Part shown: positions 6,212-41,605 of the stretch, one piece after another
Layout of the letters: each line of letters begins with the position of its first letter
Position numbering within the stretch: the stretch's first letter is position 1
Source of the DNA: Verrucomicrobiales bacterium
GTDB taxonomy: Bacteria > Verrucomicrobiota > Verrucomicrobiia > Limisphaerales > UBA9464
NCBI GenBank assembly: GCA_027483345.1
Contig: JAIXUV010000034.1
Location: forward strand, 936-64,935
DNA length: 64,000 bases
Direction: 5' to 3'
Made by a program: the position numbers and the translations under genes
The notes under the pieces: generated by a model
What the model was told of the DNA's origin: nothing
The model's input: only the letters and a program-made list of their open reading frames with translations
Database searches by the model: none

Positions 6212-6736
6212 GGGTTTCGCGCGAGAATGAGGCACATGCAGGCTCCTGCCAATCCCGCGTTGCTTCCCTCGCGGTAGCCGAACCAAAAATCCGATGGAGG
6301 CAACCCAAGTTCACCCAGACGAGGAGGGCGCAGATACCGCGTCCCACGAAACCCATCCAACCCGGGTTTCGCCGGCGAACGCGCCGTGGATCACCCGTCT
6401 TTTCGTCTGCTCCACGAAGTTCATGCGATGCAACGGGGATGCGTCTGGACGAGAACCGCCGATTTGTGTCGGTGGGCCGGACCGCGTGAAGCCGGAACCC
6501 CCGCTCTCTCGGCATGCGCGCGAAAGCCCGATCCGGATCCCACGCCCTTGCGGTTCACGATCGTGCAGATCGGAACCGATGGATCGTCCGAGGACGCCCG
6601 AATGAGTCGGGTTTGACCCCATGGCCCGCGACCCTGAGAAGCCCGAGGTTCGGGATCAACTTCGGCTCCGTTCCGATTCCCGGCGGAGCGGGAGAATCCC
6701 TCTCTTGGGCAATTCGGTATCGATACACGACGACAT

Positions 6737-23533: not shown

Positions 23534-23555
23534 CCCTCCGGACGGTCGGACGGCC

Positions 23556-23585
23556 TTGAGCCCGGGACAGCGCCTCCGATAGCCT
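23556..23585 (+). promoter_or_regulatory. Putative leaderless sigma70 promoter of mutS
   Basis: TTGAGC-18nt-TAGCCT, 6 nt before ATG 23592. Confidence 0.5.
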
Positions 23586-23591
23586 CCACGC

Positions 23592-26237
23592 ATGTCCGCC
23601 GACGAAGCAGCGCTGACCCCGATGATGGCGCAGTACCGCCGCATCAAGGGCGAACTGCCGAAGGATGCGCTGCTCCTCTTCCGACTCGGCGACTTCTACG
23701 AGCTGTTCTTCGAGGACGCCGTCACCTGTTCCCAGATCCTCGGACTGACCCTGACCAAGAGGAATGGCATCCCGATGTGCGGGATGCCCTACCACGCCGC
23801 GAACGGCTACATCGGCCGCATCCTGAAGGCGGGTCGGAAGGTCGCGGTCTGCGACCAGACCGAGGAGGCGAAGCCCGGCAAGCTCGTCCAGCGGGAGGTG
23901 ACCTCGATCCTCTCGCCAGGAACCCACTTCGACGACCGGCTGCTGAAGGCGGAGCACAACAACTTCCTCGCCGCCCTGTACCAACATGGAGGGGCCTTCG
24001 CGCTGGCCTGCGTGGACCTGACGACGGGCGACTTCCGCGTCACCGAGCAGTCCGATTCCAAACCCGTGCTCGCCGAATTGGACCGCCTCCGGCCGGCCGA
24101 GCTGATCCACCCGGCCGAGTCGAAGACGCTCGCCGCCTTCGCCGCCCAGGCCAACACCATCACCGTAGGACACGACGACTGGACGTTCCTGCCCGAGACC
24201 GCGGTCTTCACGCTCAAGGAGCATTTCAAGGTGGCCTCGCTCGATGGATTCGGGCTTCGCAACCGGCCGGCGGCGGTCGGCGCGGCCGGTGCGGTCCTGC
24301 ACTACCTTTCGACCCACCTGCGGCGGGATGTCTCCCATCTCACCCGGCTCACGACCTACGAGGCGACCGACTTCCTGGTGCTGGACGCCACCTCGCTCCG
24401 CAACCTGGAGATCCTGGAACCGCTGCACGCGGACTCCCCGAGGAACACGACCCTCTTCTCCGCATTGAACCGCACGGTCACCCCGATGGGAGCCCGCCGG
24501 CTGCGCGATTGGCTGACCCAGCCGCTGGCCACGCTCGGCCCCATCCACCGCCGCCAAGAAGCGATCCGCGCCTGGCTGGGCAACACCGATGTGCTGGCCG
24601 GGTTCCGAAGCCGGCTGACGGAAGTGCGAGATCTTGAACGGACCGTCAGCCGTCTCAGCCTCGGAAGCGGCAACGCCCGCGACCTGCTCGGGCTGAGGAT
24701 CGCCTTGGAGCAGATTCCCGCGATCCGGGCCTCGGCCTCCGGGCTCCTTCCCCGCGAGGAGCCGGCGCCGCCGTTGCTGGAGGAAGACGGAATCCCTCCA
24801 GGCCCGGAAAATCCCCCGCCGCTGCTCGCCGACCTTCTTTCCCAGGTCCTTGAGATGCCCGACCTGGTCGAGTTGCTGACCCGCGCCCTGGCCGACGAGC
24901 CACCGTTGGCGGTCCGGGAGGGCGGCATGATACGGGACGGCTTCAGCGCGGAGCTGGACGAGCTCCGCAACGCTGCGCGCGGCGGCAAGGACTGGTTGGC
25001 CAAGCTTCAGCAGGACGAGGTCGCCCGCACCGGCATCCCCTCGCTGAAGGTCGGATTCAACTCGGTGTTTGGTTACTACATCGAGGTCACCAAGACCCAC
25101 CTTGCAAAGGTGCCGGCCGACTACGTCCGGAAGCAGACCGTCGCCAACGGCGAGCGCTACATCACCCAGGACCTGAAGACGATGGAGTCGAAGATCCTCG
25201 GCTCTGAAGAAAGGGCGACCAAGCTGGAGTACGATCTGTTCCAGCGTCTGCGCGAGGAGGTCCTCGCCCAGTTGAAGGCGATCCAAGCCACCGCCTCCGC
25301 GCTGGCCCAACTCGACGTGCTGGGCGCCTTCGCCGAGACGGCCCGACTCCATGGATGGGTTCTTCCCACGGTCGGCGGCGCCGGGATCCTTTCGATCCGA
25401 GAAGGTCGCCATCCGGTGCTCGACCTCAGCATGACCGGGGAGCGTTTCGTCCCCAACGACACCGACCTCGACCCGGCCGAGTGCCAGATCGCCCTGATCA
25501 CCGGGCCGAACATGGCCGGCAAAAGCACCTTCATCCGGCAGGTCGCCTTGCTCACCCTGCTTGCACACACGGGCTCCTGCCTGCCTGCGGAGTCGGCACG
25601 CATCGACCTGTGTGACCGCATCTTCACCCGGATCGGCGCCAGTGACGACCTGGCCCGCGGGCAGAGCACGTTCATGGTCGAAATGAGCGAGACCGCGAAC
25701 ATCCTGAACAACGCCAGCCGCAGGAGCCTGGTGATCCTCGACGAGATCGGACGCGGTACCAGCACCTTCGACGGCCTGAGCCTTGCCTGGAGCATCGTGG
25801 AGCACCTGCATCATCAGGTCGGTGCCAAGACCCTGTTCGCCACCCACTACCACGAGCTGACCGAACTCGCCGGCGGAGACGCGACGGATCCGGGCCGTCT
25901 CAAGCGGGTTCGGAACCTCAACGTCGCCGTCAGGGAGTACAACGACCAGATCGTCTTCCTGCGGAAGATCCAGCCGGGTCCGGCCGACAAGAGCTACGGC
26001 ATCCAGGTCGCCCGACTCGCCGGCGTTCCACACCCGGTCATCGGCCGCGCCAAGGAGATCCTGCGGGTGCTGGAGGAGGCCGAGTTGAACCTGCACCAGG
26101 TGGCCGCTACTTCCGGCACGGCGGATGGCGGCGACGAGGGAAATGCCCACCCCAAGAAGCCCGCGAGGAAGGGATCCGCCGGCCGGCGGGCCCTGGTGGG
26201 TCTGGCCCCTTCGGACCAGCTCGACCTCTTTTCCTGA
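23592..26237 (+). CDS. mutS: DNA mismatch repair protein MutS
   Basis: TPMMAQY, FRLGDFYELF, ITGPNMAGKST, STFMVEM, DEIGRGTST, FATHYHEL. Confidence 0.98.
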   Translation: MSADEAALTPMMAQYRRIKGELPKDALLLFRLGDFYELFFEDAVTCSQILGLTLTKRNGIPMCGMPYHAANGYIGRILKAGRKVAVCDQTEEAKPGKLVQREVTSILSPGTHFDDRLLKAEHNNFLAALYQHGGAFALACVDLTTGDFRVTEQSDSKPVLAELDRLRPAELIHPAESKTLAAFAAQANTITVGHDDWTFLPETAVFTLKEHFKVASLDGFGLRNRPAAVGAAGAVLHYLSTHLRRDVSHLTRLTTYEATDFLVLDATSLRNLEILEPLHADSPRNTTLFSALNRTVTPMGARRLRDWLTQPLATLGPIHRRQEAIRAWLGNTDVLAGFRSRLTEVRDLERTVSRLSLGSGNARDLLGLRIALEQIPAIRASASGLLPREEPAPPLLEEDGIPPGPENPPPLLADLLSQVLEMPDLVELLTRALADEPPLAVREGGMIRDGFSAELDELRNAARGGKDWLAKLQQDEVARTGIPSLKVGFNSVFGYYIEVTKTHLAKVPADYVRKQTVANGERYITQDLKTMESKILGSEERATKLEYDLFQRLREEVLAQLKAIQATASALAQLDVLGAFAETARLHGWVLPTVGGAGILSIREGRHPVLDLSMTGERFVPNDTDLDPAECQIALITGPNMAGKSTFIRQVALLTLLAHTGSCLPAESARIDLCDRIFTRIGASDDLARGQSTFMVEMSETANILNNASRRSLVILDEIGRGTSTFDGLSLAWSIVEHLHHQVGAKTLFATHYHELTELAGGDATDPGRLKRVRNLNVAVREYNDQIVFLRKIQPGPADKSYGIQVARLAGVPHPVIGRAKEILRVLEEAELNLHQVAATSGTADGGDEGNAHPKKPARKGSAGRRALVGLAPSDQLDLFS

Positions 26238-26330
26238 TCCCCGTTGTCCACGGGGATCGGCGGTCCTACGTCCGGTCCAGAATGCCGTTGTGACCGACCA
26301 CGCTTCGCGGTCACGCTTTCCCCTCAATCT

Positions 26331-27662
26331 ATGGAGAAGATCCATGTCGGAATCGTCGGCGGAGGAACCGTTGGGGGTGGCGTTTGGCAGGCCCTGCAAC
26401 GCAACGGCCCACTCATGGCCGCCCGCCTCGGCGTGGCCCTCGAGGTCACCGGGGTGGCCGTGCGCGACCCCGGTCGCGCGCGGGCCGTGGACATCCCTCG
26501 GGACCGGATCACCGGCGACTGGCTCACGGTGGTCGAGGATTCCCGCAACCGGATCATCGTGGAGCTCATGGGCGGCACCTCGACGGCCCGGGAGGTGGTC
26601 CGCCGGGCGCTTTCCCTCGGCAAACCGGTGGTCACCGCCAACAAGGCCCTGATCTCGGCGCACGGTCCCGAGCTCTTCGCCTTGGCCGCCAAGAACGGCA
26701 CCAACCTGTACTATGAAGCCGCCGTCGCCGGTGGCATCCCGATCATCAAGGCGATCCGCGAGTCGTTCGCCGGAAACCGCCTCCTGCGCATCGCCGGCAT
26801 CGTCAACGGCACCTGCAACTACATCCTGACCCGGATGAAGCTCGAGGGCGCGGACTTCGCCGACGTCCTCGCGGATGCCCAACGGCTCGGCTACGCGGAG
26901 GCCGAACCCTCCCTCGACATCGACGGCCACGACGCGGCCCACAAGACCGGGATCCTCGCCTCGCTCGCGCACGGGTTCTGGGTGAAGCCGGAGGAGATCC
27001 ACACCGAGGGGATCCGACACGTGTCCAAGCTGGACATCCAGTTCGCCGCCCAACTCGGCTACACGATCCGGCTGCTGGGCATCGTCCAACCGGTGGCTGC
27101 CCCGAAATCCCGTTCCAAGCGCGCCGGCTCGGCCGCGATCCAGGTCACCGTCTACCCCGCGCTCGTCCCCAACTCCCACGTCCTCGCCTCGGTGAACCAC
27201 GCCTTCAACGCGGTGGCGATCCGCGGCGACGTCGTGGGCGACACCCTCTTTTACGGACGCGGCGCCGGACAGGATCCGACGGCCAGCTCGGTCCTGAGCG
27301 ACCTCGCCGACGCGGTCCTCGATCTCCGCGCCGGCAACCACCACCGCGTGCCGCCGTTCGTCGCACACGACGGTTCGGCCAAGGTCGCGCCGATCGACGG
27401 CATCGTCTCCCGCTTCTACGTAAGGCTCGAGGTGGCCGACCGCCCCGGGGTTTTCGCGCGGATCGCGTCGATCCTCGCCCAGGCCCGGATCGGCATCTCC
27501 TCGATCATCCAGCCCGAGGGCCATGCCGGCGAGACGGTGCCGGTGATCCTGATGCTGGATGAGGCGACGAACGAAGCCACCCGGAAGGCCATGGCCCGGA
27601 TCGCTCGTCTTCCGGTGGTCAAGGCCCCGCCGGTCGTCCTGAGAGTCGAGAACCTCGATTGA
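26331..27662 (+). CDS. hom: Homoserine dehydrogenase with C-terminal ACT domain
   Basis: GGGTVGGG, VVTANKA, EAAVAGGIP, NGTCNYIL, GRGAG..PTASSV, DRPGV. Confidence 0.96.
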   Translation: MEKIHVGIVGGGTVGGGVWQALQRNGPLMAARLGVALEVTGVAVRDPGRARAVDIPRDRITGDWLTVVEDSRNRIIVELMGGTSTAREVVRRALSLGKPVVTANKALISAHGPELFALAAKNGTNLYYEAAVAGGIPIIKAIRESFAGNRLLRIAGIVNGTCNYILTRMKLEGADFADVLADAQRLGYAEAEPSLDIDGHDAAHKTGILASLAHGFWVKPEEIHTEGIRHVSKLDIQFAAQLGYTIRLLGIVQPVAAPKSRSKRAGSAAIQVTVYPALVPNSHVLASVNHAFNAVAIRGDVVGDTLFYGRGAGQDPTASSVLSDLADAVLDLRAGNHHRVPPFVAHDGSAKVAPIDGIVSRFYVRLEVADRPGVFARIASILAQARIGISSIIQPEGHAGETVPVILMLDEATNEATRKAMARIARLPVVKAPPVVLRVENLD

Positions 27663-27679
27663 AGCCGTCCGAATCCCCG

Positions 27680-27934
27680 ATGAAACCCAAACACACACGG
27701 CTGTTCGTCAAACCCGGTTGCCCCTGGTGCGAGGAGGTCATCGAATGGCTCGATTCCCACGGTTACGTCTACGAGACCCTGGACGTGATCCGGAACTCCG
27801 CGGCACGGGCCGAAATGCTGTCGTTGACCGGCCAGTCCAAGGCACCGTCCATCGAGCTCGACGGCCACGTGCTGGCGGACTTCGGCGCCGACGAACTCGA
27901 GGAGTGGCTTCGTCCCCTTGGGTACGAAACCTGA
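27680..27934 (+). CDS. Glutaredoxin (CPWC)
   Basis: KPGCPWC..GQSKAP..LADFG. Confidence 0.88.
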   Translation: MKPKHTRLFVKPGCPWCEEVIEWLDSHGYVYETLDVIRNSAARAEMLSLTGQSKAPSIELDGHVLADFGADELEEWLRPLGYET

Positions 27935-30549: not shown

Positions 30550-30763
30550 GTTCAGATCAGATCGATTCTAGGGTGGATCGCGACGGCCGGGACGTTAGTC
30601 CACATGGGAAATCCGGTGCAATGGCGCCGTTTTGGGAGGGTTTCTGGCCGGCTCGACGATGCCGGAAACTTTTTCCCGATGGAGGCTTGATTCCCCCCGT
30701 GTTTCGCCGTTGATGGACGGCGTTCTTTGTCAGGGCCGGACCCGACGTCCGGCCTCGATCAAA

Positions 30764-30921
30764 CATCATTGGAGCTGCGGGAACGCCGTGAGAATCGGCG
30801 ACGGTTGCGCCACTGTATCGGGTTACAAACCCCCCTGGTCATCGAGACAGCCACTGGAAGCGATTCCGGGAAGGCGGGGGGCGAGGTTGAGATCCGTAGT
30901 CAGGATATCGCGCCAGTGATG
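30764..30921 (+). ncRNA. Cobalamin riboswitch
   Basis: GGGAA..GTGAGAATC..GCGCCACTGT..GCCACTGG..CCGGGAAGGC..AGTCAGGATATCG (B12 box), closed by P1 catcattggagc / gcgccagtgatg. Confidence 0.88.
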
Positions 30922-31024
30922 CTCGTCCGATCCCGGGAACAACCCGGGGTCACTTCGCCGCAAAGCGAAGGATGGAGCCAGGACTGCCCCGATCGACCGG
31001 TTGGGGCGGAGCATGCGAATGTCC

Positions 31025-31070
31025 GACGCCTTCATTCACTGCCTTGCCGGGGATGGAGGCGTTTCCAATT
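31025..31070 (+). terminator. Possible attenuator hairpin of the riboswitch expression platform
   Basis: acgccttcattc..gggatggaggcgt stem followed by ttccaatt, 90-130 nt upstream of ATG 31156. Confidence 0.45.
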
Positions 31071-31155
31071 CCAGGAACCCTTCAGCCGCCGGCCCTGGTC
31101 TCACATCGACACCCCCACCATGACGGAACCGCATGGAGGGATCGTGAAAGAGACC

Positions 31156-31980
31156 ATGAAACCGATCCACAGACTCGCCGGGACCGCCGCCGGCATCCTC
31201 ACCGCCACATCCTTGTTCGCGCAGTACGCGACCACGGTTGTCGACTACATCCCCGGTGCCGGATTCTCCGCCACCCGCACCAATGCCATCGCCGCACTCG
31301 GCGAGCCCAGCCGGATCACTCCGGGCGACTTCGGTGGGCCGGTGGACCCGTTCGCCCCGCCCTACACGGCCACGCAATTGGTCAGCGTCGGCGCCGGCGG
31401 TTCCATCACCGTCGGTTTCGCCAATCCCATCCGCAACGACCCCGCCAACCCATACGGCATCGACTTCAACGTTTTCGGCGGCGGCGGCTTCCTCGTCACC
31501 AACGCGTTCGACGCCAACTTCAGCTACATCGGGGTCCCGTCCACCGATGGAACCCTGTTCAATCCCAACGGCGGCAGCACCCGCGTCAGCGTCAGTCCGG
31601 ACGGCTCCAACTGGTTCGTCCTCGACCCGGCGCTGGCGCCGAAGGTCGACGACCTTTTCCCGACGGATGGCAGCGGTGACTTCACGCTCCCCGTCCCGCC
31701 CTCCCTCCGGTCGGAGCCCCTCGGCGGACTCACGTTGGCCGACGTGCGGATCCGCTACGCCGGTTCGGCGGGAGGCGCCGGCTACGACCTCGGCTGGGCC
31801 CGTGCCTCCGGAGGCGGTCCGGTGTCCCTCGACAGCGTCTCGTTCGTCCGGATCGAAGTGTTGAGCGGCCGCTCGGAGATCGACGGCTTCGCCGCGGTCG
31901 GCGCCGTCCCGGAACCGTCGACCATCGCCCTGTTCGCCGTCGGCGCACTGGCCTGCCTCGGATTCCAACGTAACCGCTGA
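31156..31980 (+). CDS. PEP-CTERM surface protein, putative cobalamin-binding (BtuH-like) domain
   Basis: Signal peptide; VVDYIPG..VSVGAGGSITVGF..I.N..G.DFNVFG..VSVS.DG..W..YDLGWA..PVSLDSVSFVRI; VPEPSTIALFAVGALACLGFQRNR. Confidence 0.8.
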   Translation: MKPIHRLAGTAAGILTATSLFAQYATTVVDYIPGAGFSATRTNAIAALGEPSRITPGDFGGPVDPFAPPYTATQLVSVGAGGSITVGFANPIRNDPANPYGIDFNVFGGGGFLVTNAFDANFSYIGVPSTDGTLFNPNGGSTRVSVSPDGSNWFVLDPALAPKVDDLFPTDGSGDFTLPVPPSLRSEPLGGLTLADVRIRYAGSAGGAGYDLGWARASGGGPVSLDSVSFVRIEVLSGRSEIDGFAAVGAVPEPSTIALFAVGALACLGFQRNR

Positions 31981-32009
31981 AGACCCTCCGCTTGAATCCG
32001 ACGGACTCC

Positions 32010-32369
32010 ATGAAGGCCAAGGGACAGGTCGCGCACCACGCGTCGGCCTGTCCCCTTTGCGGCGGTGAAAACGCCTGCGGCGCGGACCGCATCTCGACGG
32101 GCGGAACCTGCTGGTGCCAAAAGGTTGAGATCCCTGCCGTCCTGGCCGGGAAGGTCGGCGCCACTGGGAGCTGCCTTTGCCGCGGGTGCATCGCGGAACA
32201 CCGGAAGCAAACCCGCTGGATGCCGCGCGCCGAGCCGTCGGAGACCTATCAGGACGCTGCCGGGAGACTGGTCTTCCGGGCCGCCTACCACCTGCGTCGG
32301 GGCTACTGCTGCGGCAATGGCTGCAGGCACTGCCCCTTTGGCTTCACCACCCCGCTTCCGGAACCATGA
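32010..32369 (+). CDS. Cys-rich CWC + DUF5522 fusion protein
   Basis: CPLCGGENACG..CWC..CLCRGC fused to GRLVFRAAYHLRRGYCCGNGCRHCPF. Confidence 0.85.
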   Translation: MKAKGQVAHHASACPLCGGENACGADRISTGGTCWCQKVEIPAVLAGKVGATGSCLCRGCIAEHRKQTRWMPRAEPSETYQDAAGRLVFRAAYHLRRGYCCGNGCRHCPFGFTTPLPEP

Positions 32370-33361
32370 GGAACTGCGTTCAGCCAAAGCCGACCTTCGC
32401 GGTCCTGCTTTTGACGGCGGCCTCGGCAGCCCTCGCCACCAACGCAGCGGAGCGGTTGTCCGAGGACTTCTCGAAGCCTCCCCAGCAGTCGGGCTGGATC
32501 CGCTTCGGAGACACGGAGCTGTCCCGTTGGGATTCCGTGGGGCAGCAGCTGGAATTCACCTGGGATTCCTCCCGCCCCAACAGCGGGATCGCCCATCGCC
32601 TGCCCCGGGTCATGACCGACAAGGACGACCTGGCCTTCGCCTTCGACCTCGAGCTGTTGTCCCATGAAGTCGGCGTCGACCCGGCCCGGCCATCGACCTT
32701 TCAGATCGCCGCGGGACTGGTCCGCTTGGATGCGGTTCGTTCCTTGGATTACGTGCGGGGTGCTTTGCCGGGACCCCGTGACACCCTTGAATGGACTTGG
32801 TTCGGGGCGAAGGACCCCATCGCCGCGTCGATCTCGCCGACGGTCATTCCATCGGATGGCCGGCTTCCTTGGGGCTACGCCGACAGCTTCGTCACGCTGG
32901 AGGTCGGGACCCGCTACCGGTTCGACGTCCAGTACACGGCCTCCGACCGGACGTTGAGGCTACGCATGAAGACCGGCAGCGAACCCGGTCCATCCCTGGA
33001 CAGCATCGTCCTGCCTCCGGCGTTCACCGGGTTCTCGGTCGACGCCTTCGCGATCTGCAGCTACTCGGCGCAGGGCCAGCATCCGCTCTTCGGAGGATCC
33101 GTCCTTGCCCGTGCCGTGGTCGACAACTTGCTGATCACCGTCCCAGCCCCGCCGGTGGAACTGGTCCGGATCGACGGCAAGCAGGTCTCCTTCCGGGCTT
33201 CGAAGGGTTGGCGATACCGGCTGGAGGCCTCCGGGGATCTCCAGGAATGGAGCGTGGTCGACACCGTGGAACCCACGGAGGACGGAGTGGTCCGCATGTC
33301 CGACCTGCGCGATGCGGTTTTCCGGGAGCAGTTCTATCGCGTTCGCGCGGTTCGGCCATGA
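32366..33361 (+). CDS. Secreted hypothetical protein with verrucomicrobial-type C-terminal domain
   Basis: Signal peptide; EDFS..W..TWDSSRPNS; C-terminal YRLEASGDLQEW..D..QFYRVRAV; ATGA overlaps at both ends. Confidence 0.8.
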   Translation: MRNCVQPKPTFAVLLLTAASAALATNAAERLSEDFSKPPQQSGWIRFGDTELSRWDSVGQQLEFTWDSSRPNSGIAHRLPRVMTDKDDLAFAFDLELLSHEVGVDPARPSTFQIAAGLVRLDAVRSLDYVRGALPGPRDTLEWTWFGAKDPIAASISPTVIPSDGRLPWGYADSFVTLEVGTRYRFDVQYTASDRTLRLRMKTGSEPGPSLDSIVLPPAFTGFSVDAFAICSYSAQGQHPLFGGSVLARAVVDNLLITVPAPPVELVRIDGKQVSFRASKGWRYRLEASGDLQEWSVVDTVEPTEDGVVRMSDLRDAVFREQFYRVRAVRP

Positions 33362-34098
33362 GCCATGGGAGCCGCGAAGACTTTCGACAGGCCTTCACCT
33401 TGGTCGAACTCCTGGTGGTGGTCGCCGTGATCGGGATCCTCGCGGGACTTCTTTTGCCGACGTTGGGAAGCACACGTCAGGCAGCCGACAGGAGCCGATG
33501 CACTACCAACCTGCGTCAACTCGCCCTCGCGGCACAGCTCTATTGGGACGACCATGGAGGTCGCGCCTTTCCTGAACGCGGCGTGAGGACCAATGGTGGA
33601 TGGATCTACTGGTTTGGTTGGCTGGCGGATGGCTCGGAAGGCCACCGCGAATTCGACCCGACCCGCGGCGCGCTGTGGCCGCACCTGCGCCAACAGTCGA
33701 TCGGCGTTTGTCCCGCCCTTGACCGCTCGTCGGCACAGTTCAAGTCCAAGGCCTCCGGCGCCGCCTACGGCTACGGCTACAATCTCCTGGTGGGAACCCG
33801 CTCCGAAGCCGGCATCCGCATCCCAGAGATACGGAGCCCCACCGACCTCGCCGTCTTCGCGGACTGTGCCCAAGTCAACGACTTCCAGCCCCCGGCCTCG
33901 CCCTCGAATCCCATGCTCGAGGAGTTCTACTACTTCGACCTGCTGACGCCGTCGGTCCATTTCCGCCACCGCCGGCGCGCGCTCGCCGCGTTCGCTGATG
34001 GACACGTGGAACCGCAACGTCCCCAGGAGGGTTCGGCCGATCCCCGGATTCCGGGACAGCTCGTCGGTCGCCTGTCCGAGGACCGCGTCCGTCCCTGA
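33358..34098 (+). CDS. Prepilin-type N-terminal cleavage/methylation protein (DUF1559-like, H-X9-DG)
   Basis: AFTLVELLVVVAVIGILAGLLLP..C.TNLRQL..CP..YGYGYN..HFRH..AAFADGHV. Confidence 0.92.
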   Translation: MSHGSREDFRQAFTLVELLVVVAVIGILAGLLLPTLGSTRQAADRSRCTTNLRQLALAAQLYWDDHGGRAFPERGVRTNGGWIYWFGWLADGSEGHREFDPTRGALWPHLRQQSIGVCPALDRSSAQFKSKASGAAYGYGYNLLVGTRSEAGIRIPEIRSPTDLAVFADCAQVNDFQPPASPSNPMLEEFYYFDLLTPSVHFRHRRRALAAFADGHVEPQRPQEGSADPRIPGQLVGRLSEDRVRP

Positions 34099-34244: not shown

Positions 34245-35705
34245 GTGCAAGACCTCCCAGAAGGCATCGGCGGTGCCGATTCCGGAACCAAGCCGGACTT
34301 CAAGCGTTCCAAGCGGAACCGCTCCGCGGTGGACATCTCGAAGCTGGACCGTCTTCCGCCCCACTCGGTGGAGGCGGAACAGGGAGTTCTCGGCTGCGTG
34401 CTGCTCTCGCCGAACGAGTGCATGGGTCTCTGCATCGAGAAGTTCAAGTCGGGCGCAGAGACCTTCTACGACCTCCGCCACCAGGCCATCTACCAACTGC
34501 TGGCCGACATGTACGACAAGAAGGACGCGATCGACCTGATCACCGTCCAGCAGAAGCTCAAGGACACCAACCAGCTCGAGGGCGTCGGCGGGCTGGCCTA
34601 CCTCAGCGGGCTGCAGGACGCCGTTCCCAGCGCGGCCAACCTCTCGTACTACATCGACATCGTCCGGGAGAAACACGTCCTGCGCCGGATGCTGAGCGCC
34701 TGCACCGGCGTGGTCTCGAGGGTCTACGAACACGAAGGCGAGGTGGACAGCCTGCTCGACGAGGTCGAACGCGACATCCTGCGGATCAGCGAGGACCGCG
34801 AAACCTCCACGATCCGGCCGATGAAGGACCTCGTCCGCGGGGCGATCGACATGATCCAGGAGTTCCACCAGCGGGCCGGCGGCCTGACGGGGCTGCCGAC
34901 CGGATTCGCCGACTTCGACAAGATGACGAGCGGCATGCACGGAGGGGAGATGATCGTGATCGCGGCCCGTCCCTCGATGGGCAAGACCTCCCTGGTCATG
35001 AACATCGCCGAGCACATCGTCATCAACGAGAAGCAGCCGGTCGGCGTGTTCAGCCTCGAGATGACCTCCGAGTCGCTGGTCATGCGTATGCTCTGTTCCC
35101 TGGCACGGGTGAACGGGCGGTCCATCCGCGAGGGCTTCATGGCCGAGCAGGACTTCAAGAAGCTGACCGGCGCCGCTGCCAAGATGGCGAAGTCGCCGCT
35201 GTTCATCGACGACACCCCGGGCCTTTCGATCCTCCAGCTCCGCGCCCGCGCGCGCCGGATGTGGCAGCAGCACGGCATCAAGCTGTTCATCATCGACTAC
35301 CTCCAGCTGATGCACTCCACGTCCAAGAAGGCGCAGGACAACCGCCAACAGGAGATCTCCGACATCTCGAACGGGGTGAAGTCGCTGGCCAAGGAATTGA
35401 ACGTCCCTGTGATCGTCCTGTCCCAGCTCAACCGTGAACTGGAGAAGGACAAGAACCGCAAGCCGCGCCTGTCGGACCTCCGCGAATCCGGTGCGATCGA
35501 ACAGGACGCCGATCTGGTCGGCCTTCTCTACAAGCCCGCGGAGGAGGAGGAAGACGTGTCTGAGGCCCGTCAGCCGGTGGAATCCCACCCCGTGAACCTC
35601 CTGATCGCAAAACAGCGCAACGGCCCGACCGGCGACGTCCGACTGACCTTCTTTAAGAGCTTCACACGGTACGAGTCTGCGGCGAAGCTCGACGCCGAAG
35701 ACTGA
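34245..35705 (+). CDS. dnaB: Replicative DNA helicase
   Basis: PPHSVEAEQGVLG, AARPSMGKT, IDYLQLM, LSQLNR, LRESGAIEQDAD, KQRNGPTG. Confidence 0.97.
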   Translation: MQDLPEGIGGADSGTKPDFKRSKRNRSAVDISKLDRLPPHSVEAEQGVLGCVLLSPNECMGLCIEKFKSGAETFYDLRHQAIYQLLADMYDKKDAIDLITVQQKLKDTNQLEGVGGLAYLSGLQDAVPSAANLSYYIDIVREKHVLRRMLSACTGVVSRVYEHEGEVDSLLDEVERDILRISEDRETSTIRPMKDLVRGAIDMIQEFHQRAGGLTGLPTGFADFDKMTSGMHGGEMIVIAARPSMGKTSLVMNIAEHIVINEKQPVGVFSLEMTSESLVMRMLCSLARVNGRSIREGFMAEQDFKKLTGAAAKMAKSPLFIDDTPGLSILQLRARARRMWQQHGIKLFIIDYLQLMHSTSKKAQDNRQQEISDISNGVKSLAKELNVPVIVLSQLNRELEKDKNRKPRLSDLRESGAIEQDADLVGLLYKPAEEEEDVSEARQPVESHPVNLLIAKQRNGPTGDVRLTFFKSFTRYESAAKLDAED

Positions 35706-35712
35706 ACTGCTG

Positions 35713-38196
35713 ATGAAATTGTTTCCTCGCCGCTGGCTTAGGCTCTGCGCCGTCCTCGTCGCCTGCCTCCAACTGGCCGCCGCCGAAGAAGGTCCCGTGA
35801 TCCGGAAGATCGTCATCAAGCATGTCGGTCCGCCTGCCGTCAGCGAGGAGCTCATCCGGGCCAACATCCGAGTGAAGGAGGGGGAGGCGTACAGCCGGGT
35901 GTCGATCGACGACGACATCAAGAACCTCTACGGCACCCTTTTCTTCTACAACATCCGCGTGACCGAGGACGTGACCGCGACCGAGACGGGTCCCGGCGGC
36001 GTCAAGATCGCGAAGGAGTACACGCTGACCTACGTGGTCCAGGGAAAGCCGGTGATCACGGAGATCCGCTTTTCGGGGAACAAGAAGTACTCGACCTCGC
36101 GGTTGCGTCGGAAGCTGACCTCCAAGACCGGCGAGCCCATGGACGAGCGCCGGCTCTTCAACGACACGCAGGAGATCCTGAAGATGTACCAGAAGGCCGG
36201 TCTGCAGAAGACCACCATCGAGTACAAGCCCAGCATCAACGAGGCGCTCGGCCGGGGCATCGTCACCTTCGAGATCAGCGAGGCTCCGCGGGTGAAGATC
36301 AAGGACGTGGTCTTCGACGACGCCCAGGCCTTCAAGCAGCGGAAGCTGCGTCGTGCGATCAAGACCCGCCGCTGGTGGATCTTCTCCTGGATCACCGGAT
36401 CCGGCCGCTTCAAGGACGACGTCTTCGAGGAGGACAAGGAGAAGCTCCGCGAGTTCTACGCCGACAAGGGCTACATCGACATGGAGCTCAAGGATCCGGT
36501 GTTCGTCTATCCGAAGACCAACAACCTGATCCTGCACCTGCCGGTGGTCGAGGGTCCCCAGTACCGGGTCGGCACGGTCGAATTCAAGGGCAACGAGCTC
36601 TTCCCTCGCGAGCAGATCGTCCAGAACCTCACCTCGAAGGACGGCGAGAAGACGAAGCGGGGCCTGCAATTGCGTTCGGGCGAGGTCTTCTCTCCGACGC
36701 GTCTCGGCAAGGACACCGAGGCGATCCAGGATTTCTACGGTGCGCGAGGCTACATCGATGCCCGGGTCCGACCTGAGCGGATCGCGAACATCGACAAGGG
36801 TTCGCTCGACCTCCGCTACAACGTCGAGGAGGGCGACAAGTTCTACGTCGAGAAGATCGAGATCCAGGGCAACACCAAGACCAAGGACAAGGTCATCCGT
36901 CGCGAGTTGGCAATCACGCCCGGCGAGACCTTCGACATGATCCGGGTGAAGGTCTCGAAGAGCCGGCTCGAACAGATGCAGTTCTTCGAGAAGGTGGAGA
37001 CGAAGGAAGAAGGCACCGACGTCCCGAACCGGAAGAACCTGGTGATCTCCGTCGAGGAGAAGAACACCGGCAACGTCGCCGTCGGAGCGGGGTTCAGCTC
37101 TGTCGACTCCCTGGTCGGCTTCGTGGAGATCAGCCAGGGCAACTTCGACATCGGCAATCCGCCCTACTTCACGGGAGCCGGCCAAAAGGCCCGGCTCCGC
37201 GCCCAGGTCGGCTCGAGGCGCCAGGACTACGTGATGACCTTCGTGGAGCCGTGGTTCCTCGGGAAGCGGCTCTCGCTCAGCACCGATCTGTACCACCGGG
37301 ACCTGAACTTCCTGTCGGACAACTTCAACCAGCGCCAGACCGGCGCGCGGATCGGCCTGAGCCGACAGCTCCCGCTGAACCTCGTCGGGAACATCAGCTA
37401 CACGATCGAGAGCATCGGGATCCGGTTCTCGGATTCCTACCGGGCCCAGCAGCAGGCCGTGGGCAGCGCGATCCTCGCCGAGGAAGGCACACGTCTCGTC
37501 TCTCGCGTGGGCAGCTCGCTGGCCCACGACACCCGGAACAACTTCCTCCTGCCGACCCGGGGCCATCGCGCCGAATTGCTTGGGGAACTGGCGGGCGGTC
37601 CTTTCGGCGGCGATTCCGATTTCTACAAGCTGGAGGCCCGGATCGCCCAGTATTGGAGTCCGGGACGCCTGTTCCGTGACGAGGGCACGGCGAAGGAGAT
37701 TCTGGACACGCACACCCTTGAGCTGGCCGGGCGCATCGGCGTGGTCGAGGCCTATGGCGACTCGAGCCGGGTTCCCCTGTTCGACCGGTACTACCTGGGC
37801 GGTCTCTACAACCTGCGCGGATCCAAGTTCCGCGCCGTGGGTCCGCGGGAATTCTACTCCGGTGAGCCCCTGGGCGGTGGCACTTACTGGTTCGGATCCG
37901 CGGAATACACGATTCCGATCATTGAACGCCTGCGCTTCGCCCTGTTCTACGACATCGGCATGGTCTACCCGGAGGCGTACAGTTTCGATCCCACCAGTTC
38001 CGGTGTGGATGCGATCGGCAATCCGTTGGTCCGCGGGAACACCGGCCTCTACAACGACAACTGGGGTATCGGCATCCGACTGAACCTCCCCATCGGCCCG
38101 CTGCGGCTCGACTACGGCATCCCGATCAACCACGACCCCGACTCGGGAGGATCCGGGAGGTTCCAGTTTGGCGTTGGCTGGACGCGTGATTTCTGA
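35713..38196 (+). CDS. bamA: Outer membrane protein assembly factor BamA
   Basis: POTRA repeats (GNTKTKDKVIRRE), LRGSKFRAVGP, GIRLNLPIGPLRLDYG, terminal F. Confidence 0.95.
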   Translation: MKLFPRRWLRLCAVLVACLQLAAAEEGPVIRKIVIKHVGPPAVSEELIRANIRVKEGEAYSRVSIDDDIKNLYGTLFFYNIRVTEDVTATETGPGGVKIAKEYTLTYVVQGKPVITEIRFSGNKKYSTSRLRRKLTSKTGEPMDERRLFNDTQEILKMYQKAGLQKTTIEYKPSINEALGRGIVTFEISEAPRVKIKDVVFDDAQAFKQRKLRRAIKTRRWWIFSWITGSGRFKDDVFEEDKEKLREFYADKGYIDMELKDPVFVYPKTNNLILHLPVVEGPQYRVGTVEFKGNELFPREQIVQNLTSKDGEKTKRGLQLRSGEVFSPTRLGKDTEAIQDFYGARGYIDARVRPERIANIDKGSLDLRYNVEEGDKFYVEKIEIQGNTKTKDKVIRRELAITPGETFDMIRVKVSKSRLEQMQFFEKVETKEEGTDVPNRKNLVISVEEKNTGNVAVGAGFSSVDSLVGFVEISQGNFDIGNPPYFTGAGQKARLRAQVGSRRQDYVMTFVEPWFLGKRLSLSTDLYHRDLNFLSDNFNQRQTGARIGLSRQLPLNLVGNISYTIESIGIRFSDSYRAQQQAVGSAILAEEGTRLVSRVGSSLAHDTRNNFLLPTRGHRAELLGELAGGPFGGDSDFYKLEARIAQYWSPGRLFRDEGTAKEILDTHTLELAGRIGVVEAYGDSSRVPLFDRYYLGGLYNLRGSKFRAVGPREFYSGEPLGGGTYWFGSAEYTIPIIERLRFALFYDIGMVYPEAYSFDPTSSGVDAIGNPLVRGNTGLYNDNWGIGIRLNLPIGPLRLDYGIPINHDPDSGGSGRFQFGVGWTRDF

Positions 38197-38229
38197 CATC
38201 CCTTTCCCGTCTGTTTTCCCAAACGAAGC

Positions 38230-38856
38230 ATGAAACGACCTGTGAAGTTCCTCGCCGCCGCGATCACCGCGGCCCTCCTCTCCATGCCGGCCAATGCCCA
38301 GGGCAAGGTCGGAGTAATCGACCTGCAGAAGGTGTTCGACAACTTCTGGCGCACCAAGCAGGCGGACGTGCAGATCAAGGATCGCCTTTCCGAGTTCGAG
38401 AAGCTCGGAGCCACGATGTTTGAGGACTACAAGAAGGCCAATGAGGAGTTTGGAAAGCAGATGGAGGCCGCCAACGACCCTGCTCTTTCCAACGAGGAGA
38501 AGGACAAGCGCCGCAAGGACCTCGAGAAGAAGCGCAAGGACATCCTCGAGATGGAGAACAACCTGAAGCAGTTCCAACAGAACAGCCAGAAGTCGTTGAT
38601 GGAACAGAAGTTCCGCGTGCGTGAATCGATCCTTCGCGAAGTCCGCGGCGTGATCGAGGAGAAGGCCAAGGCGGGCGGCTTCAACATGGTCCTGGACACC
38701 GCGGCGCTCTCCGCCAACCAGACCCCGATCCTCCTTTACAGCACCCTCTCCGGTTCCGAGAACGACCTTTCCGAGTCGGTCTCCAAGCAGTTGGCCGCTT
38801 CCGCTCCTCCCGATGCGCCGAAGGCGGAGGCTCCCAAGACCGAGGAGAAGAAGTAG
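38230..38856 (+). CDS. skp: OmpH/Skp periplasmic chaperone
   Basis: Signal peptide, KVGVIDLQKVF, coiled coil, directly after bamA. Confidence 0.9.
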   Translation: MKRPVKFLAAAITAALLSMPANAQGKVGVIDLQKVFDNFWRTKQADVQIKDRLSEFEKLGATMFEDYKKANEEFGKQMEAANDPALSNEEKDKRRKDLEKKRKDILEMENNLKQFQQNSQKSLMEQKFRVRESILREVRGVIEEKAKAGGFNMVLDTAALSANQTPILLYSTLSGSENDLSESVSKQLAASAPPDAPKAEAPKTEEKK

Positions 38857-38875
38857 TCTCCCAGCCAGTTTGAAT

Positions 38876-38908
38876 GGGGCGCGGCATCGGCCGCGCCCCT
38901 TTTCGTTT
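38876..38908 (+). terminator. Rho-independent terminator
   Basis: ggggcgcggc-atcg-gccgcgcccc followed by ttttcgttt. Confidence 0.85.
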
Positions 38909-38932
38909 CCCGATCCTCCGTCACCTCCTCCC

Positions 38933-39631
38933 ATGACCACCGCCGTGATCGTCGCCGCCGGACGCGGAACCCGCATGGGCCCGGGAATCGACAAGCTCTT
39001 CCTCGAGATCGCCGGCCGCACCGTCGTCGGCCACACGTGGAAACGCTTCGACGGACATCCCGAGATCGACCACGTCGTCCTGGTCGTCCGGAAGGGCTCC
39101 GAGCCAGCATTCCATGAGATCGGTGCCACACTGGACCTCTCCAAACCGTGGTCCCTGGTGGCCGGCGGTGCTGAAAGGCAGGACTCCGTGTGGAACGGAG
39201 TCCAAGCGGTGCCTCCCGGTACGCGCTGGGTGGCCGTCCAGGACGGCGCCAGACCCTGCACCTCCGCCGCCACGATCTCCCGATGCCTCGCCGACGCCCG
39301 CCGCGCCGGAGCCTCCGTGGCCGCCCAGCGGATGGTCGACACCATCAAGGAGTCGACAGCCGAAGGCGGGATGATCGGACAGCACCTCGACCGTTCTCGG
39401 CTCTGGAGCGTCCAGACTCCCCAATGCTTCGCCCTGGACGTCCTGGCTCCAGCCTTGGAGAAGGTGCGGAAACAGGGGATCTTGGTGACCGACGACACGG
39501 CGGCGTGCGGTCTTGCCGGACACCCGGTGGTCCTCACCGAATGTCCGGACCCAAATCCCAAGGTCACAAGTCCGGCGGATCTTCCGCTGGTGGCCCATTG
39601 GCTGACTCCCCCTCCCGAACCGCTTCCTTGA
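38933..39631 (+). CDS. ispD: 2-C-methyl-D-erythritol 4-phosphate cytidylyltransferase
   Basis: AAGRGTRMG, GGAERQDSV, DGARP, QTPQCF, TDD, NPKVT. Confidence 0.95.
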   Translation: MTTAVIVAAGRGTRMGPGIDKLFLEIAGRTVVGHTWKRFDGHPEIDHVVLVVRKGSEPAFHEIGATLDLSKPWSLVAGGAERQDSVWNGVQAVPPGTRWVAVQDGARPCTSAATISRCLADARRAGASVAAQRMVDTIKESTAEGGMIGQHLDRSRLWSVQTPQCFALDVLAPALEKVRKQGILVTDDTAACGLAGHPVVLTECPDPNPKVTSPADLPLVAHWLTPPPEPLP

Positions 39632-39700
39632 CTCCGCGGGGCGCGACCGACAAGTTGTCCCGCTCGTTCGCGCCCCGCCTTCCCCGCGGTCAACGCACCT

Positions 39701-41605
39701 ATGTCCAAGACGAAAGAGAAGAAGCCCGTCGCCAAGGCCGCCCTGAAGAAGCCGACCCCTCCCGCAGCCACCGCACCGGCCTCGACGCATTCCGCGTCGA
39801 AGGGCGGACGCCCCGAGCGTCCCGCCAAAAAGCCGGCCGCGGCCGCCAACCCTGCGGAGATCGTCGTGCCCAAGGAGCCGGTCGAACTCACCGGGCCCAG
39901 CCCTGCCCAACTCGCACAGATCGCTTCCGGGGAGGGCGACGGCCTGCCCTCCGCCATCGGCACGATCAAGAACGCCTCCGGCGTTGATATCACCGAGAAG
40001 ATCAAGGAACTGGTCCGGCAATCCCAGGAGCAGGGCTACCTGACCCACAGCGACATCGGTGACGCGCTTGCCGACACCCCCATGTCCCCCGAGGAGATGG
40101 ACGAGGTGTACATCAAGCTGCGCAACCTCGAGATCGAGATCGTCGACCAGGCGGAGGTGGACCGGCCCAAGAACGCTGAGCAGGAGGAAGAGGAGGACAA
40201 GTCACGGCTCGACATCCTCGATGATCCGGTCCGGATGTACCTCAAGCAGATGGGCCAGGTCCCGCTGCTGACCCGCGAACAGGAGGTCGAGATTTCCAAG
40301 CGGATCGAGGACAACGAGAACGAGGTGAAGCGGATCATCTACTCGTTCGGATTCTCCGCGAAGGAACACATCGCACTGGCCGAGAAGCTGATCTCGGAAC
40401 CTCCGAAGGAGCGTTTCGACCGGGTGATCGTCGACAAGAAGATCGAGGTGCGTGAAGAACATCTCAAGGCGCTCCGCAAGCTGGTGAAGGATGTCCGTGC
40501 CATCGACCAGCAGGTGGACGAGTACTGGCGCGGGCTTCAGGAACCGGCCTCCAAGACCAAGCACGAGAAGATGGGCGTGGAGTTCAAGAAGCTGGACGAG
40601 AAACTCCAGCGCTCCTTTCCCAAGTTCTACTACAAGCAAAAGGTCATCGAGGAGATGTCCCTGGTCGCCGAGAACATCCACGAGAAGTTCCAGATCTCCC
40701 GGCGATCCATCCACGAACTCGAGCCCCAGAAGCGGGCCGCTCAGGCCCAGGCGATCATCCATGCCGAAGAGCGGAAGATCAAAGCGCTGGAGGAGTTCGT
40801 CCGCATGACCGTGGCGGGCTACATCGAGGCCTTCAGCCAGCTGAAGCATTTTGAACGCAAGGCGCTGCAGGCGAAGACCGAGATGGTCGAGGCCAACCTG
40901 CGCCTGGTGATCTCGATCGCCAAGAAGTACACGAACCGCGGCCTCTCCTTCCTCGACCTCATTCAGGAGGGCAACATGGGCCTGATGAAGGCGGTGGAGA
41001 AGTTCGAGTACCGCCGCGGCTACAAGTTCTCGACCTACGCGACGTGGTGGATCCGGCAGGCGATCACCCGCTCGATCGCCGATCAGGCGCGGACCATCCG
41101 CATCCCGGTCCACATGATCGAGACGATCAACAAGCTGATGCGGGTGCAGAAGCAGCTGATCCAGGACTTCGGCCGGGAACCGACCCCGGAGGAGATCGCG
41201 GACGAGATGCAGATGCCGGTCGACCGGGTGCGTGCCGTCCTCAAGATGGCCCAGCAGCCGATCTCCCTGCAGAGCCCGGTGGGTGACTCCGACGACACCA
41301 ACTTCGGCGACTTCATCGAGGACAAGTCCGCGGAGAACCCGTCGGACATGACCAGCTACAGCCTGCTGAAGGCCAAGCTGGCGGACGTTCTGGACTCGCT
41401 GACAGAACGCGAACGGAAGGTGCTGGAACTCCGGTTCGGCCTGCTCGACGGCTATAGCCGGACGCTTGAGGAGGTCGGCAAGCAGTTCAAGGTGACCCGT
41501 GAGCGCATCCGTCAGATCGAGGCCAAGGCCTTGAGGAAGATGCGTCATCCGACCCGTTTGAGGCAGCTCCACGGCTTCCTCGAAGGCGAGGAGGCCGTCG
41601 CCTGA
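39701..41605 (+). CDS. rpoD: RNA polymerase primary sigma factor
   Basis: [56 protein letters not shown]. Confidence 0.98.

Follow-up and report, generated by a model that had tools for sequence, protein, structure and literature searches.

A riboswitch-preceded operon with a BtuH-type protein and a DUF1559 prepilin points to an undescribed vitamin B12 scavenging route in Verrucomicrobiota

In a 64,000-nucleotide stretch of DNA from a Verrucomicrobiales bacterium (assembly GCA_027483345.1, contig JAIXUV010000034.1, positions 936 to 64,935 of the forward strand; hereafter the window), a cobalamin riboswitch precedes an operon of four genes, called here g1 to g4, that points to an undescribed route of vitamin B12 scavenging. 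On the strength of sequence comparisons and structural models, we consider it likely that this operon is a B12-repressed corrinoid-scavenging module at the envelope of a B12-auxotrophic verrucomicrobium. Such a module had been proposed in a preliminary description of this DNA, and the riboswitch, the conservation of the gene set, a BtuH-like g1, the partnership with a pilin and an auxotroph-like genome all speak for it. The same description held that the unit contains no btu genes; this is correct for btuB, btuF, btuC and btuD but overlooks g1, a BtuH homologue through which part of the module belongs to a known kind.

Vitamin B12 is made by few microbes and required by many, and its supply to auxotrophs shapes communities. 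To our knowledge, the B12 acquisition steps at the outer envelope are largely unknown outside Proteobacteria and Bacteroidota, and we know of no function assigned to the DUF1559 proteins, which occur as dozens of paralogues per genome.

A cobalamin riboswitch precedes four co-oriented genes

The operon and its leader comprise the following features, numbered from the first base of the window:

30753-30931, + strand: cobalamin riboswitch aptamer, RF00174 (Rfam covariance model)
30932-31155, + strand: structured leader or expression platform, the 224 nt between the aptamer and the start of g1
31156-31980, + strand: g1, 274 amino acids; signal peptide, BtuH-type (candidate B12-binding) globular domain, PEP-CTERM tail
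32010-32369, + strand: g2, 119 amino acids; Cys-rich, Cys_rich_CWC and DUF5522; alternative in-frame TTG start at 31992
32366-33361, + strand: g3, 331 amino acids; signal peptide, legume-lectin-like jelly roll at about 26-263, C-terminal beta-sandwich; unnamed family
33358-34098, + strand: g4, 246 amino acids; type IV prepilin-like, of the DUF1559 / H-X9-DG kind

All four genes lie downstream of the riboswitch in the same orientation, and the ATGA overlaps between g2 and g3 (32366-32369) and between g3 and g4 (33358-33361) were read directly in the sequence. The open reading frames (ORFs) and the Pfam and NCBIfam matches bear out the four genes, both overlaps and the domain calls of the preliminary description; the signal peptides of g1 and g3 were judged by eye.

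The aptamer matched RF00174 over the whole model (positions 1-189 of 189) with 66.6 bits, compared to a gathering score of 31.5 (E 3e-14), and was the sole Rfam match in the window in a scan at gathering thresholds. The riboswitch reported earlier was thus recovered above threshold and at full length, the start then given, 30764, lying 11 nt inside the aptamer. The leader that follows is strongly structured, since the fold of 30920-31165 has a minimum free energy of -114.5 kcal/mol and a z-score of -4.74. Hairpins were found at about 30929-30951 and 30953-30970, with no U-tract after them, and a terminator scan between the aptamer and g1 called no terminator. A canonical intrinsic terminator in the leader was dropped for these two reasons. 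The attenuator-like hairpin noted previously therefore stands as a structure but not as a textbook terminator.

Further upstream, a consensus scan placed two terminator-like hairpins with T-runs at 30648-30722 on the + strand. These appear to close the upstream unit, which suggests that the operon starts a new transcript; with two such sites found against a mean of 3.2 in shuffled sequence, they are weak evidence when taken alone. Contigs from three RNA libraries span 30790-31598 and 32131-32349, reaching from the aptamer through the leader into the 5' part of g1 and covering a stretch of g2. They hint weakly at one RNA shared by aptamer, leader and g1, as DNA carry-over is possible; g3 and g4 were without coverage, and the uncovered part carries no meaning. 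The presence of the riboswitch suggests that the operon is repressed by B12.

g1 resembles the B12-binding domain of BtuH

The C-terminal tail of g1 matched PEP-CTERM models in both Pfam (PF07589, 26.4 bits, cut-off 20.7) and NCBIfam (TIGR02595, 19.1 bits, cut-off 16), and three Exosortase_EpsH matches (108.9-163.7 bits) are present in the genome. The tail is missing from some g1 orthologues, namely L030, L041 and those read in one frame with g3 (loci, genomes and contigs are designated here by L, G and C numbers, respectively). Searched as a single sequence, g1 matched no Pfam family for the BtuH-type domain. By contrast, a profile of 16 g1 sequences compared with PDB sequences retrieved 8blw_B (BtuG1 with an H-domain; E 1.7e-5) and 7biz_A (BtuH2, B12-bound; E 0.002), with N- and C-terminal stretches aligning in identical order in both. 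The structural comparison agrees with the profile. When the AlphaFold (AF2) model of g1 (predicted local distance difference test score, pLDDT, 84.5) was searched with Foldseek, the 8blw and 7biz chains ranked first (7.7e-8 and 1.9e-4), and VIA-align superposed it on the BtuG1 H-domain with Z 14.8 (root-mean-square deviation 3.9, 160 residues aligned) and on BtuH2 with Z 14.6 (3.6, 155 residues), at 24-26% identity over these 155-160 residues. The next fold, that of PAPP-A and CBM32-like modules, reached Z 9.7. g1 is present as a single copy in the genome. Profile and model together indicate that g1 is a distant BtuH-type domain with a PEP-CTERM tail and a candidate B12 binder.

The C-terminal domain of BtuH2 binds B12 in the crystal structure, and BtuH2 is reported to be required for efficient uptake and gut fitness (PMC8941943). 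The B12 contacts listed in that source are Gln333, Asn399, Phe401, His476, Tyr510, Trp511, Trp577 and Leu578, Asn399 being a phosphate contact. Within the stretches aligned by HMMER, to which the comparison is limited and outside which the other contacts fall, the position of Phe401 is Gly or Phe in the g1 family and that of Gln333 is unconserved; the position of Asn399 is considered below.

The gene set is conserved with the riboswitch in the order

To follow the operon in related bacteria, g3 was searched in 300 genomes of the class, and about 10 kb were fetched around each locus found. It was present in 26 genomes, all of them among the 44 genomes of the window's order (Limisphaerales/Pedosphaera, according to record titles). 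In 24 of the 26 loci, Rfam placed a cobalamin riboswitch upstream of g3 and in the same orientation, and these 24 loci contain g3 and g4 without exception (24/24 each) and g1 in 15 cases. All-against-all clustering of the first 27 loci revealed no further conserved neighbour, and no TonB-dependent receptor among the neighbours. The nine operons without g1 consist of the riboswitch, g3, an optional g2 and g4; in all five genomes of this riboswitch-g3-g4 type that were checked (94-97% complete), no BtuH-like domain was detected genome-wide. The operon riboswitch is the sole one found in two near-complete relatives (4 and 10 contigs).

A second survey used the g1 profile on one genome per GTDB species, 150 relatives in total, of which the best 80 loci were kept, all on contigs of metagenome-assembled genomes (MAGs). 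Record titles of these loci are mostly Verrucomicrobia/Verrucomicrobiota, with Limisphaerales, Pedosphaera, Verrucomicrobiales and a few other taxa; several submitter titles among L075-L154 (Akkermansia muciniphila, Prosthecobacter debontii, Bifidobacteriaceae, Omnitrophota) look unreliable. An nhmmer profile built from 25 aptamers detected a riboswitch upstream on the same strand in 80/80, and the ten weakest or oddest of these, rechecked with Rfam, all belonged to the cobalamin clan (seven RF00174, three RF01482). Among these best 80 loci, g3 was present in 77, not assessable in two and absent from one, and g4 was present in 61 (61/71 assessable, nine being not assessable at contig ends); these counts are not independent, as at least seven of the 80 loci lie on contigs of the first set and the genomes are all kin and all MAGs. 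The preliminary description had suggested examining whether the genes co-occur behind B12 riboswitches, and within the order they do (24/26 g3 loci, 80/80 best g1 loci). As to the riboswitches themselves, the orthologous operons L133, L134 and L152 are those matching RF01482 (the AdoCbl model) instead of RF00174, and L142 has two cobalamin riboswitches (1427-1621 and 6436-6674).

In genomes that lack g3, riboswitch-controlled proteins of 700-750 amino acids combine a BtuH-like domain with the C-terminal domain of g3, and a g4-type prepilin gene follows them in two of three cases. A repeated N-terminal domain with the motif F/L-DD-V/I-Q-F-W-x-G-T-G-x-N-x-A-A-L-V-I-D-W, matching no Pfam family, was seen in L071, L072, L074, L158 and L171, and also as separate proteins of 225-235 amino acids.

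Some of the best 80 operons contain accessory genes: a BtuF-like Peripla_BP_2 gene (7/80, in one case fused to DUF1289), a DUF6580 membrane protein (5/80, and also in L160) and a PP-loop ATPase (6/80). A PP-loop ATPase (Diphthami_syn_2), a 177-residue DUF6580 protein and a BtuF-like Peripla_BP_2 protein form a cassette between g3 and g2/g4 in L121, L132, L136, L140 and L143 (also L096, L142 and L160); its BtuF-like member has no obvious signal peptide. DUF6580 is a candidate small B12 importer. Sequence searches gave it neither a PDB relative nor an NCBIfam name, and a literature search for DUF6580 returned nothing. At L033 (6232-8172), a single frame holds DUF1289 (Cys-rich), Peripla_BP_2 and the g4 prepilin region, either as a fusion or as adjacent genes without an intervening stop.

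The prepilin stays while the binder changes in other classes and orders

The preliminary description called the module PVC-specific; here the operon was followed beyond the order within one PVC phylum, Verrucomicrobiota. In a sample of 400 genomes of the phylum, the g1 profile matched 19 genomes, all from other classes; no genome with the label of the same class was among them. Twenty loci were fetched, 19 from 18 other-class genomes and one from the window's order (G015). RF00174 is located upstream of the BtuH-like gene in 19/20 of them (all except L165), and a g4-type prepilin gene follows directly downstream in 19/20 (all except L157). The binder of L176 additionally has a DUF4465 domain (E 8.8e-51).

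DUF4465 is a family for which B12 binding is reported experimentally, including proteins of Coraliomargarita and Haloferula (PMC13398666). We found it in 16 of 301 genomes, exclusively in other orders of the class; PF14717 (DUF4465) had no match in the window's own genome or in the sampled genomes of its order. At the 16 short DUF4465 loci, RF00174 lies upstream in 8 and a pilin-like ORF downstream in 9. When the loci were extended, a g4-type prepilin followed the binder in 6/6 (E 1e-30 to 4e-73), with a BtuH-like gene between DUF4465 and the prepilin in 5/6, the latter being weak matches (E 1e-6 to 1e-9, in small ORF sets). The DUF4465 protein of L194 ends in a PEP-CTERM tail, and the pilin gene of this locus is followed by a gene for a protein with two ATP-binding cassette (ABC) ATPase domains and then by a gene resembling an energy-coupling factor (ECF) S-component.

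Across Verrucomicrobiota, the binder is thus exchanged (BtuH-like, DUF4465 or g3 alone) while the g4-type DUF1559 prepilin stays adjacent; no other partner accompanies B12-binding proteins as constantly behind the B12 riboswitches of several classes and orders. It is extremely improbable that the link between riboswitch and genes is incidental and that the genes are unrelated to B12. Such a view can point to the orphan g3 genes L034 and L035, which have no riboswitch, and to g3 and g4 having no assigned function; it is opposed by the recurrence of the association with binders of different types in several classes and orders and by the homology of g1 to a proven B12 binder.

The genome looks like that of a B12 auxotroph

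The assembly to which the window belongs is 95.5% complete in 402 contigs, so that absences from it are not proof. The B12-dependent need is represented by MetH (1454 bits). No CobQ was found above the cut-off, and among 151 genomes of the order only two have one. The check for a btuB gene elsewhere, suggested in the preliminary description, was run and yielded no BtuB equivalog, the best match to TIGR01779 reaching 84.6 bits against a cut-off of 599.7. No BtuC was detected either: the sole FecCD match in the genome was weak and was rejected as BtuC because it is ZnuB (ABC-3, 220.8 bits), encoded beside ZnuA and Zur. One orphan Peripla_BP_2 gene (70.6 bits) lies outside the operon, as does the one DUF6580 gene of the genome, whose surroundings show no link to B12. 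No TonB-dependent receptor was found behind any of the B12 riboswitches examined. This gene content fits a B12 auxotroph that has neither a BtuB equivalog nor BtuC.

RNR (ribonucleotide reductase) and MetE are classic B12-independent isozyme targets of cobalamin riboswitches. The genome has two cobalamin riboswitches only, and the second (G000 C94:5783-5974, L001; 109.7 bits) precedes an ORF that by eye resembles the small subunit of a class I ribonucleotide reductase, with a CbiX-like ORF upstream on the other strand. In the relative G177, a riboswitch lies before a ribonucleotide reductase large subunit (Pfam) and a MetE-like ORF (by eye).

g3, a lectin-fold partner of g1

g3 belongs to no Pfam family in any of 27 members (27/27), does not match Lectin_legB, and the window's g3 matched no NCBIfam family; its ESM Atlas neighbours are unnamed clusters of Verrucomicrobiota. 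In the AF2 model (pLDDT 88.3), residues 26-263 form a legume-lectin-like (ConA-like) jelly roll, followed by a C-terminal beta-sandwich ending in FYRVRAxRP. Legume lectins were retrieved with this model by Foldseek (4e-9) and by VIA (Z 16.7 over 206 residues, 14% identity), and the g3 family profile retrieved peanut lectin from the PDB at E 0.009. BtuJ/DUF4465 chains were absent from the best 50 VIA rows, which are all lectins, and similarity to them is still possible.

A single open frame spans g1 and g3 in 5/24 and 11/80 loci, a Rosetta-stone sign that the two proteins act together. Because g3 is often fused to g1 and is the sole putative binder in some relatives, it may be a second capture or docking protein, and we regard this lectin-fold protein as a likely new binder. 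A predicted complex of g3 (residues 26-331) with g4 (residues 38-246) obtained a score of 0.01 and a mark of 0.32, which weighs neither way.

The g3 family profile also had 14 weaker ORF matches elsewhere in the genome (for example C106:6093-7895; best E 1.5e-9). These are assumed to be due to the FYRVRAxRP beta-sandwich, the matched region being not displayed. If so, this beta-sandwich, which matches no Pfam C-terminal domain, may serve widely in Verrucomicrobiota to sort or anchor secreted proteins.

The fold of g3 also bears on the idea that the module does not import B12 and would instead store it outside the cell, act as a competitive sink, or attach the cell to neighbouring B12 producers through the lectin-fold protein. 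Legume lectins with this fold bind carbohydrates, a role as an extracellular store of the vitamin is described for Bacteroides BtuJ1 (bioRxiv 10.1101/2025.07.01.662609), and the window's operon encodes no transporter. On the other hand, the organism needs B12 for MetH and without CobQ cannot make cobyric acid, importer genes join the operon in relatives, and repression by B12 fits acquisition. We therefore hold hoarding or adhesion to be distinctly improbable.

g2 is a variable, probably cytoplasmic accessory

The Pfam matches of g2 are Cys_rich_CWC (42.2 bits, cut-off 24) and DUF5522 (61 bits, cut-off 25), and the protein has no signal peptide. It is a variable member of the operon, found in 8/24 and 37/80 of the related loci. 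In three relatives, the CWC domain lies in one open frame ahead of the signal or anchor helix of g3 (L036, L039 and L043); in three others it precedes, likewise in frame, the g4 prepilin helix (L038, L040 and L051). Since the CWC domain thus precedes N-termini that are inserted in the membrane, g2 is placed on the cytoplasmic side. The leader of about 80 residues resembling a zinc finger that L038, L040 and L051 carry on the prepilin is unusual; cleavage would free it into the cytoplasm.

g4 is a distinct DUF1559 prepilin

g4 matched the N_methyl family (PF07963, 25.2 bits, cut-off 21.2) and DUF1559/SBP_bac_10 (PF07596, 29.2 bits, cut-off 23.3; the match spans profile positions 2-103 of 268) in Pfam, and TIGR02532 in NCBIfam (26.5 bits, cut-off 16.3). 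Its prepilin motif, QA|FTLVELLVV, has Phe at +1, Glu at +5 and a hydrophobic helix; the residue at -1 is Ala, and Gly or Ala in orthologues. The globular part contains a conserved Cys pair and the motifs YWFGW, FYY and HFRH-x9-DG. In an alignment judged by eye, H204-x9-D214-G215 shows little or no variation among 23 orthologues; we take this spacing to be that to which the name H-X9-DG refers, and NCBIfam reported no H-X9-DG model for g4 at E <= 0.1.

It should be noted that g4 falls below every equivalog cut-off: 34.6 against 88.85 for GspG (over the N-terminal 57 residues only), 29 against 400 for PilA and 24.7 against 75 for ComGC. Compared with PDB sequences, the g4 profile matched only the N-terminal helices of pilins (GspG and PilA chains), and its ESM Atlas neighbours are exclusively clusters named 'type II secretion system protein'. 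The genome contains 75 pilin-like ORFs; the g4 family profile gives the operon copy 368.8 bits and the next one 130.2, a gap that marks g4 as a distinct orthologue group. g4 is encoded away from any assembly genes, and the genome has a Peptidase_A24 prepilin peptidase and seven secretin matches.

Three accounts of how g4 might serve B12 acquisition were weighed. In the first, g4 would be a pseudopilin dedicated to its cargo, part of a machine akin to type II secretion that exports g1, g3 and other B12 binders via a secretin to the cell surface, B12 itself entering by an unlinked TonB-dependent receptor. An N-terminus nearest to GspG and type IV pilin chains, the secretins and the prepilin peptidase of the genome, and its six TonB-dependent receptor matches are in line with this, as is the constant position of g4 next to exported binders of three folds, which would be expected of an export helper reading some feature common to them. 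However, the GspG score is far below the equivalog cut-off, PEP-CTERM proteins are already served by a sorting enzyme of their own, and neither a TonB-dependent receptor behind the riboswitches examined nor a further conserved neighbour in 27 loci was found; in L194, moreover, the pilin gene sits between the binders and the ECF-type importer. This export role is possible, if somewhat unlikely.

In the second account, g4 would form no fibre and act as a corrinoid binder of the periplasm anchored in the inner membrane, taking the part of BtuF and passing B12 to DUF6580 or ECF-type importers. The Pfam name of DUF1559 is 'SBP_bac_10', the window's genome has no BtuC and a single Peripla_BP_2 gene outside the operon, g4 lies directly before importer genes in L194, and aromatic motifs (YWFGW, FYY) and the Cys pair are conserved in the globular part. 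Against such a role, g4 and a BtuF-like gene occur together in L132, L136, L140, L121 and L142, and the conserved prepilin cleavage/methylation motif suggests processing over mere anchoring. We consider it rather unlikely.

In the third account, to which we give no greater credence than to the second, the g4 subfamily would build or tip a short pseudopilus that takes corrinoids from interchangeable binders (BtuH-like, DUF4465, g3) through a secretin into the periplasm and so replaces the TonB-dependent BtuB. As a corollary, g3 would be a third, undescribed kind of B12-binding protein. The uptake of DNA by retractile pseudopili (e.g. ComGC) offers an analogy.

A model for scavenging at the envelope

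We infer ligand binding by g1, g3 and g4, their localisation, the direction of regulation and every transport step of the corrinoid-scavenging module as follows. When B12 is scarce, the riboswitch would leave transcript or translation on. g1 would be exported and sorted by an exosortase via its PEP-CTERM tail, and its BtuH-type domain would bind corrinoids at the surface, with g3 working beside it in capture or docking. g4, as a dedicated type IV pilin-like protein cut by the prepilin peptidase, may couple the captured vitamin to its passage through the envelope, and an inner-membrane transporter encoded elsewhere would finish import, a step for which some relatives have DUF6580 or ECF-type genes inside the operon. 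g2 would be a cytoplasmic Cys-rich accessory protein.

Several observations weigh against this model. The operon encodes no membrane channel or transporter, and, given the six generic TonB-dependent receptor matches in the genome, a divergent BtuB without a riboswitch is possible. At the position equivalent to the phosphate contact Asn399 of BtuH2, 11 of 16 members of the g1 family have Asn and the window's g1 has Gly. Only 81 of the 151 genomes searched in the order yielded a g1-like domain. The conserved residues of g4 (the Cys pair and FRH...DGH) look like general DUF1559 traits and not like a B12 site, and g4 is absent from 10 of the 71 assessable g1 loci and from L157 and L074. The orphan g3 homologues L034 and L035 lack g1 and g4 as well as a riboswitch, and the kinship of the surveyed genomes, stated above with the counts, reduces the weight of the conservation.

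Genes flanking the operon

Downstream of g4 lie:

34245-35705: DnaB helicase, downstream of g4
35713-38196: BamA (Omp85 with POTRA repeats), downstream of DnaB

DnaB was dropped as a possible member of the operon, and BamA is likewise outside it, as the downstream neighbours vary among the related loci. Two long ORFs nearby on the opposite strand (23451-27698 and 35662-40005), neither of them with a Pfam match, are probably shadows in this GC-rich DNA.

Comparison with known systems

Classical B12 acquisition by BtuB-BtuF-BtuCD in E. coli, or by BtuB-BtuG in Bacteroides, is likewise a riboswitch-repressed acquisition of the cofactor by an auxotroph, and BtuF-like genes occur in a minority of the relatives studied here. 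The window's genome differs in having neither a BtuB equivalog nor BtuC, and the conserved loci in having no TonB-dependent receptor. For the inner membrane, ECF-CbrT and BtuM are examples of ECF-type and of solitary small membrane B12 importers. The ECF S-component-like gene and the two ABC ATPase domains that follow the pilin gene of L194, and the DUF6580 genes of some operons, resemble such systems; the window's operon itself has none.

With type IV pilins, GspG and PilA, g4 shares the prepilin motif and the hydrophobic N-terminal helix, and the genome has the peptidase and secretins. It differs from type IV pilins and pseudopilins by scoring below the equivalog cut-offs, by its DUF1559 globular domain with the H-X9-DG spacing and by the lack of assembly genes nearby. 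One clearly separable subfamily of DUF1559 prepilins is tied here to a defined physiological signal and, as we infer, to a ligand. If uptake by a pseudopilus were true, this would be the first defined ligand and function for the very large DUF1559 / H-X9-DG family of Planctomycetes-Verrucomicrobia-Chlamydiae (PVC) bacteria, and any part of the pilin in uptake would amount to a new principle of nutrient import across the outer membrane. In the literature searched, subscription journals lying outside it, we found no link of DUF1559, prepilins or PEP-CTERM proteins with B12, nor of BtuH with Verrucomicrobia.

DUF4465/BtuJ proteins (BtuJ1, BtuJ2 and D5EK51 of Coraliomargarita) are described as capturing corrinoids at the surface or in the periplasm with a beta-jelly-roll (PMC13398666), as proposed here. 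In other Verrucomicrobiota, DUF4465 genes hold the operon position of g1/g3 with the same g4-type prepilin next to them. The window's operon is without DUF4465, and the jelly roll of g3 is legume-lectin-like and outside Pfam. The neighbourhoods given for DUF4465 comprise ABC, TonB-dependent and beta-propeller partners, and the main text of that source does not mention pilins, DUF1559 or secretion (PMC13398666).

BtuH (7BIZ, 8BLW) resembles g1 in sequence profile and fold, and, as far as the sources describe it, in being exported, directed to the surface and encoded behind a B12 riboswitch (PMC8941943, PMC13616437). By contrast, g1 has a PEP-CTERM tail and not a lipoprotein anchor, has no PKD or Ig domains, and carries Gly at the Asn399-equivalent position. 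The homologues of BtuH reported by Putnam et al. are from gut Bacteroidetes and three Firmicutes, whereas the host of g1 is a verrucomicrobium. Over 80% of btuH homologues in gut species are reported to share an operon with btuB (PMC8941943). The typical setting of btuH, with btuB or btuG, is not that of g1, whose operon and conserved neighbours include no gene for a TonB-dependent receptor or a beta-propeller; this is a difference of context and not a trait of the domain. The BtuH kind of B12 catcher is thus extended to freshwater Verrucomicrobiota, with PEP-CTERM as a different anchor.

The closest known system is the surface relay of Bacteroides, in which BtuJ, BtuH, BtuK and BtuG are described as feeding BtuB (PMC10404256, PMC13616437, PMC8941943). 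Riboswitch control and surface binders of the BtuH and DUF4465 kinds are common to both. The verrucomicrobial operon differs in lacking BtuB and BtuG and in having PEP-CTERM anchors, a lectin-fold partner and a dedicated DUF1559 prepilin, and it points to a B12 scavenging route not yet described.

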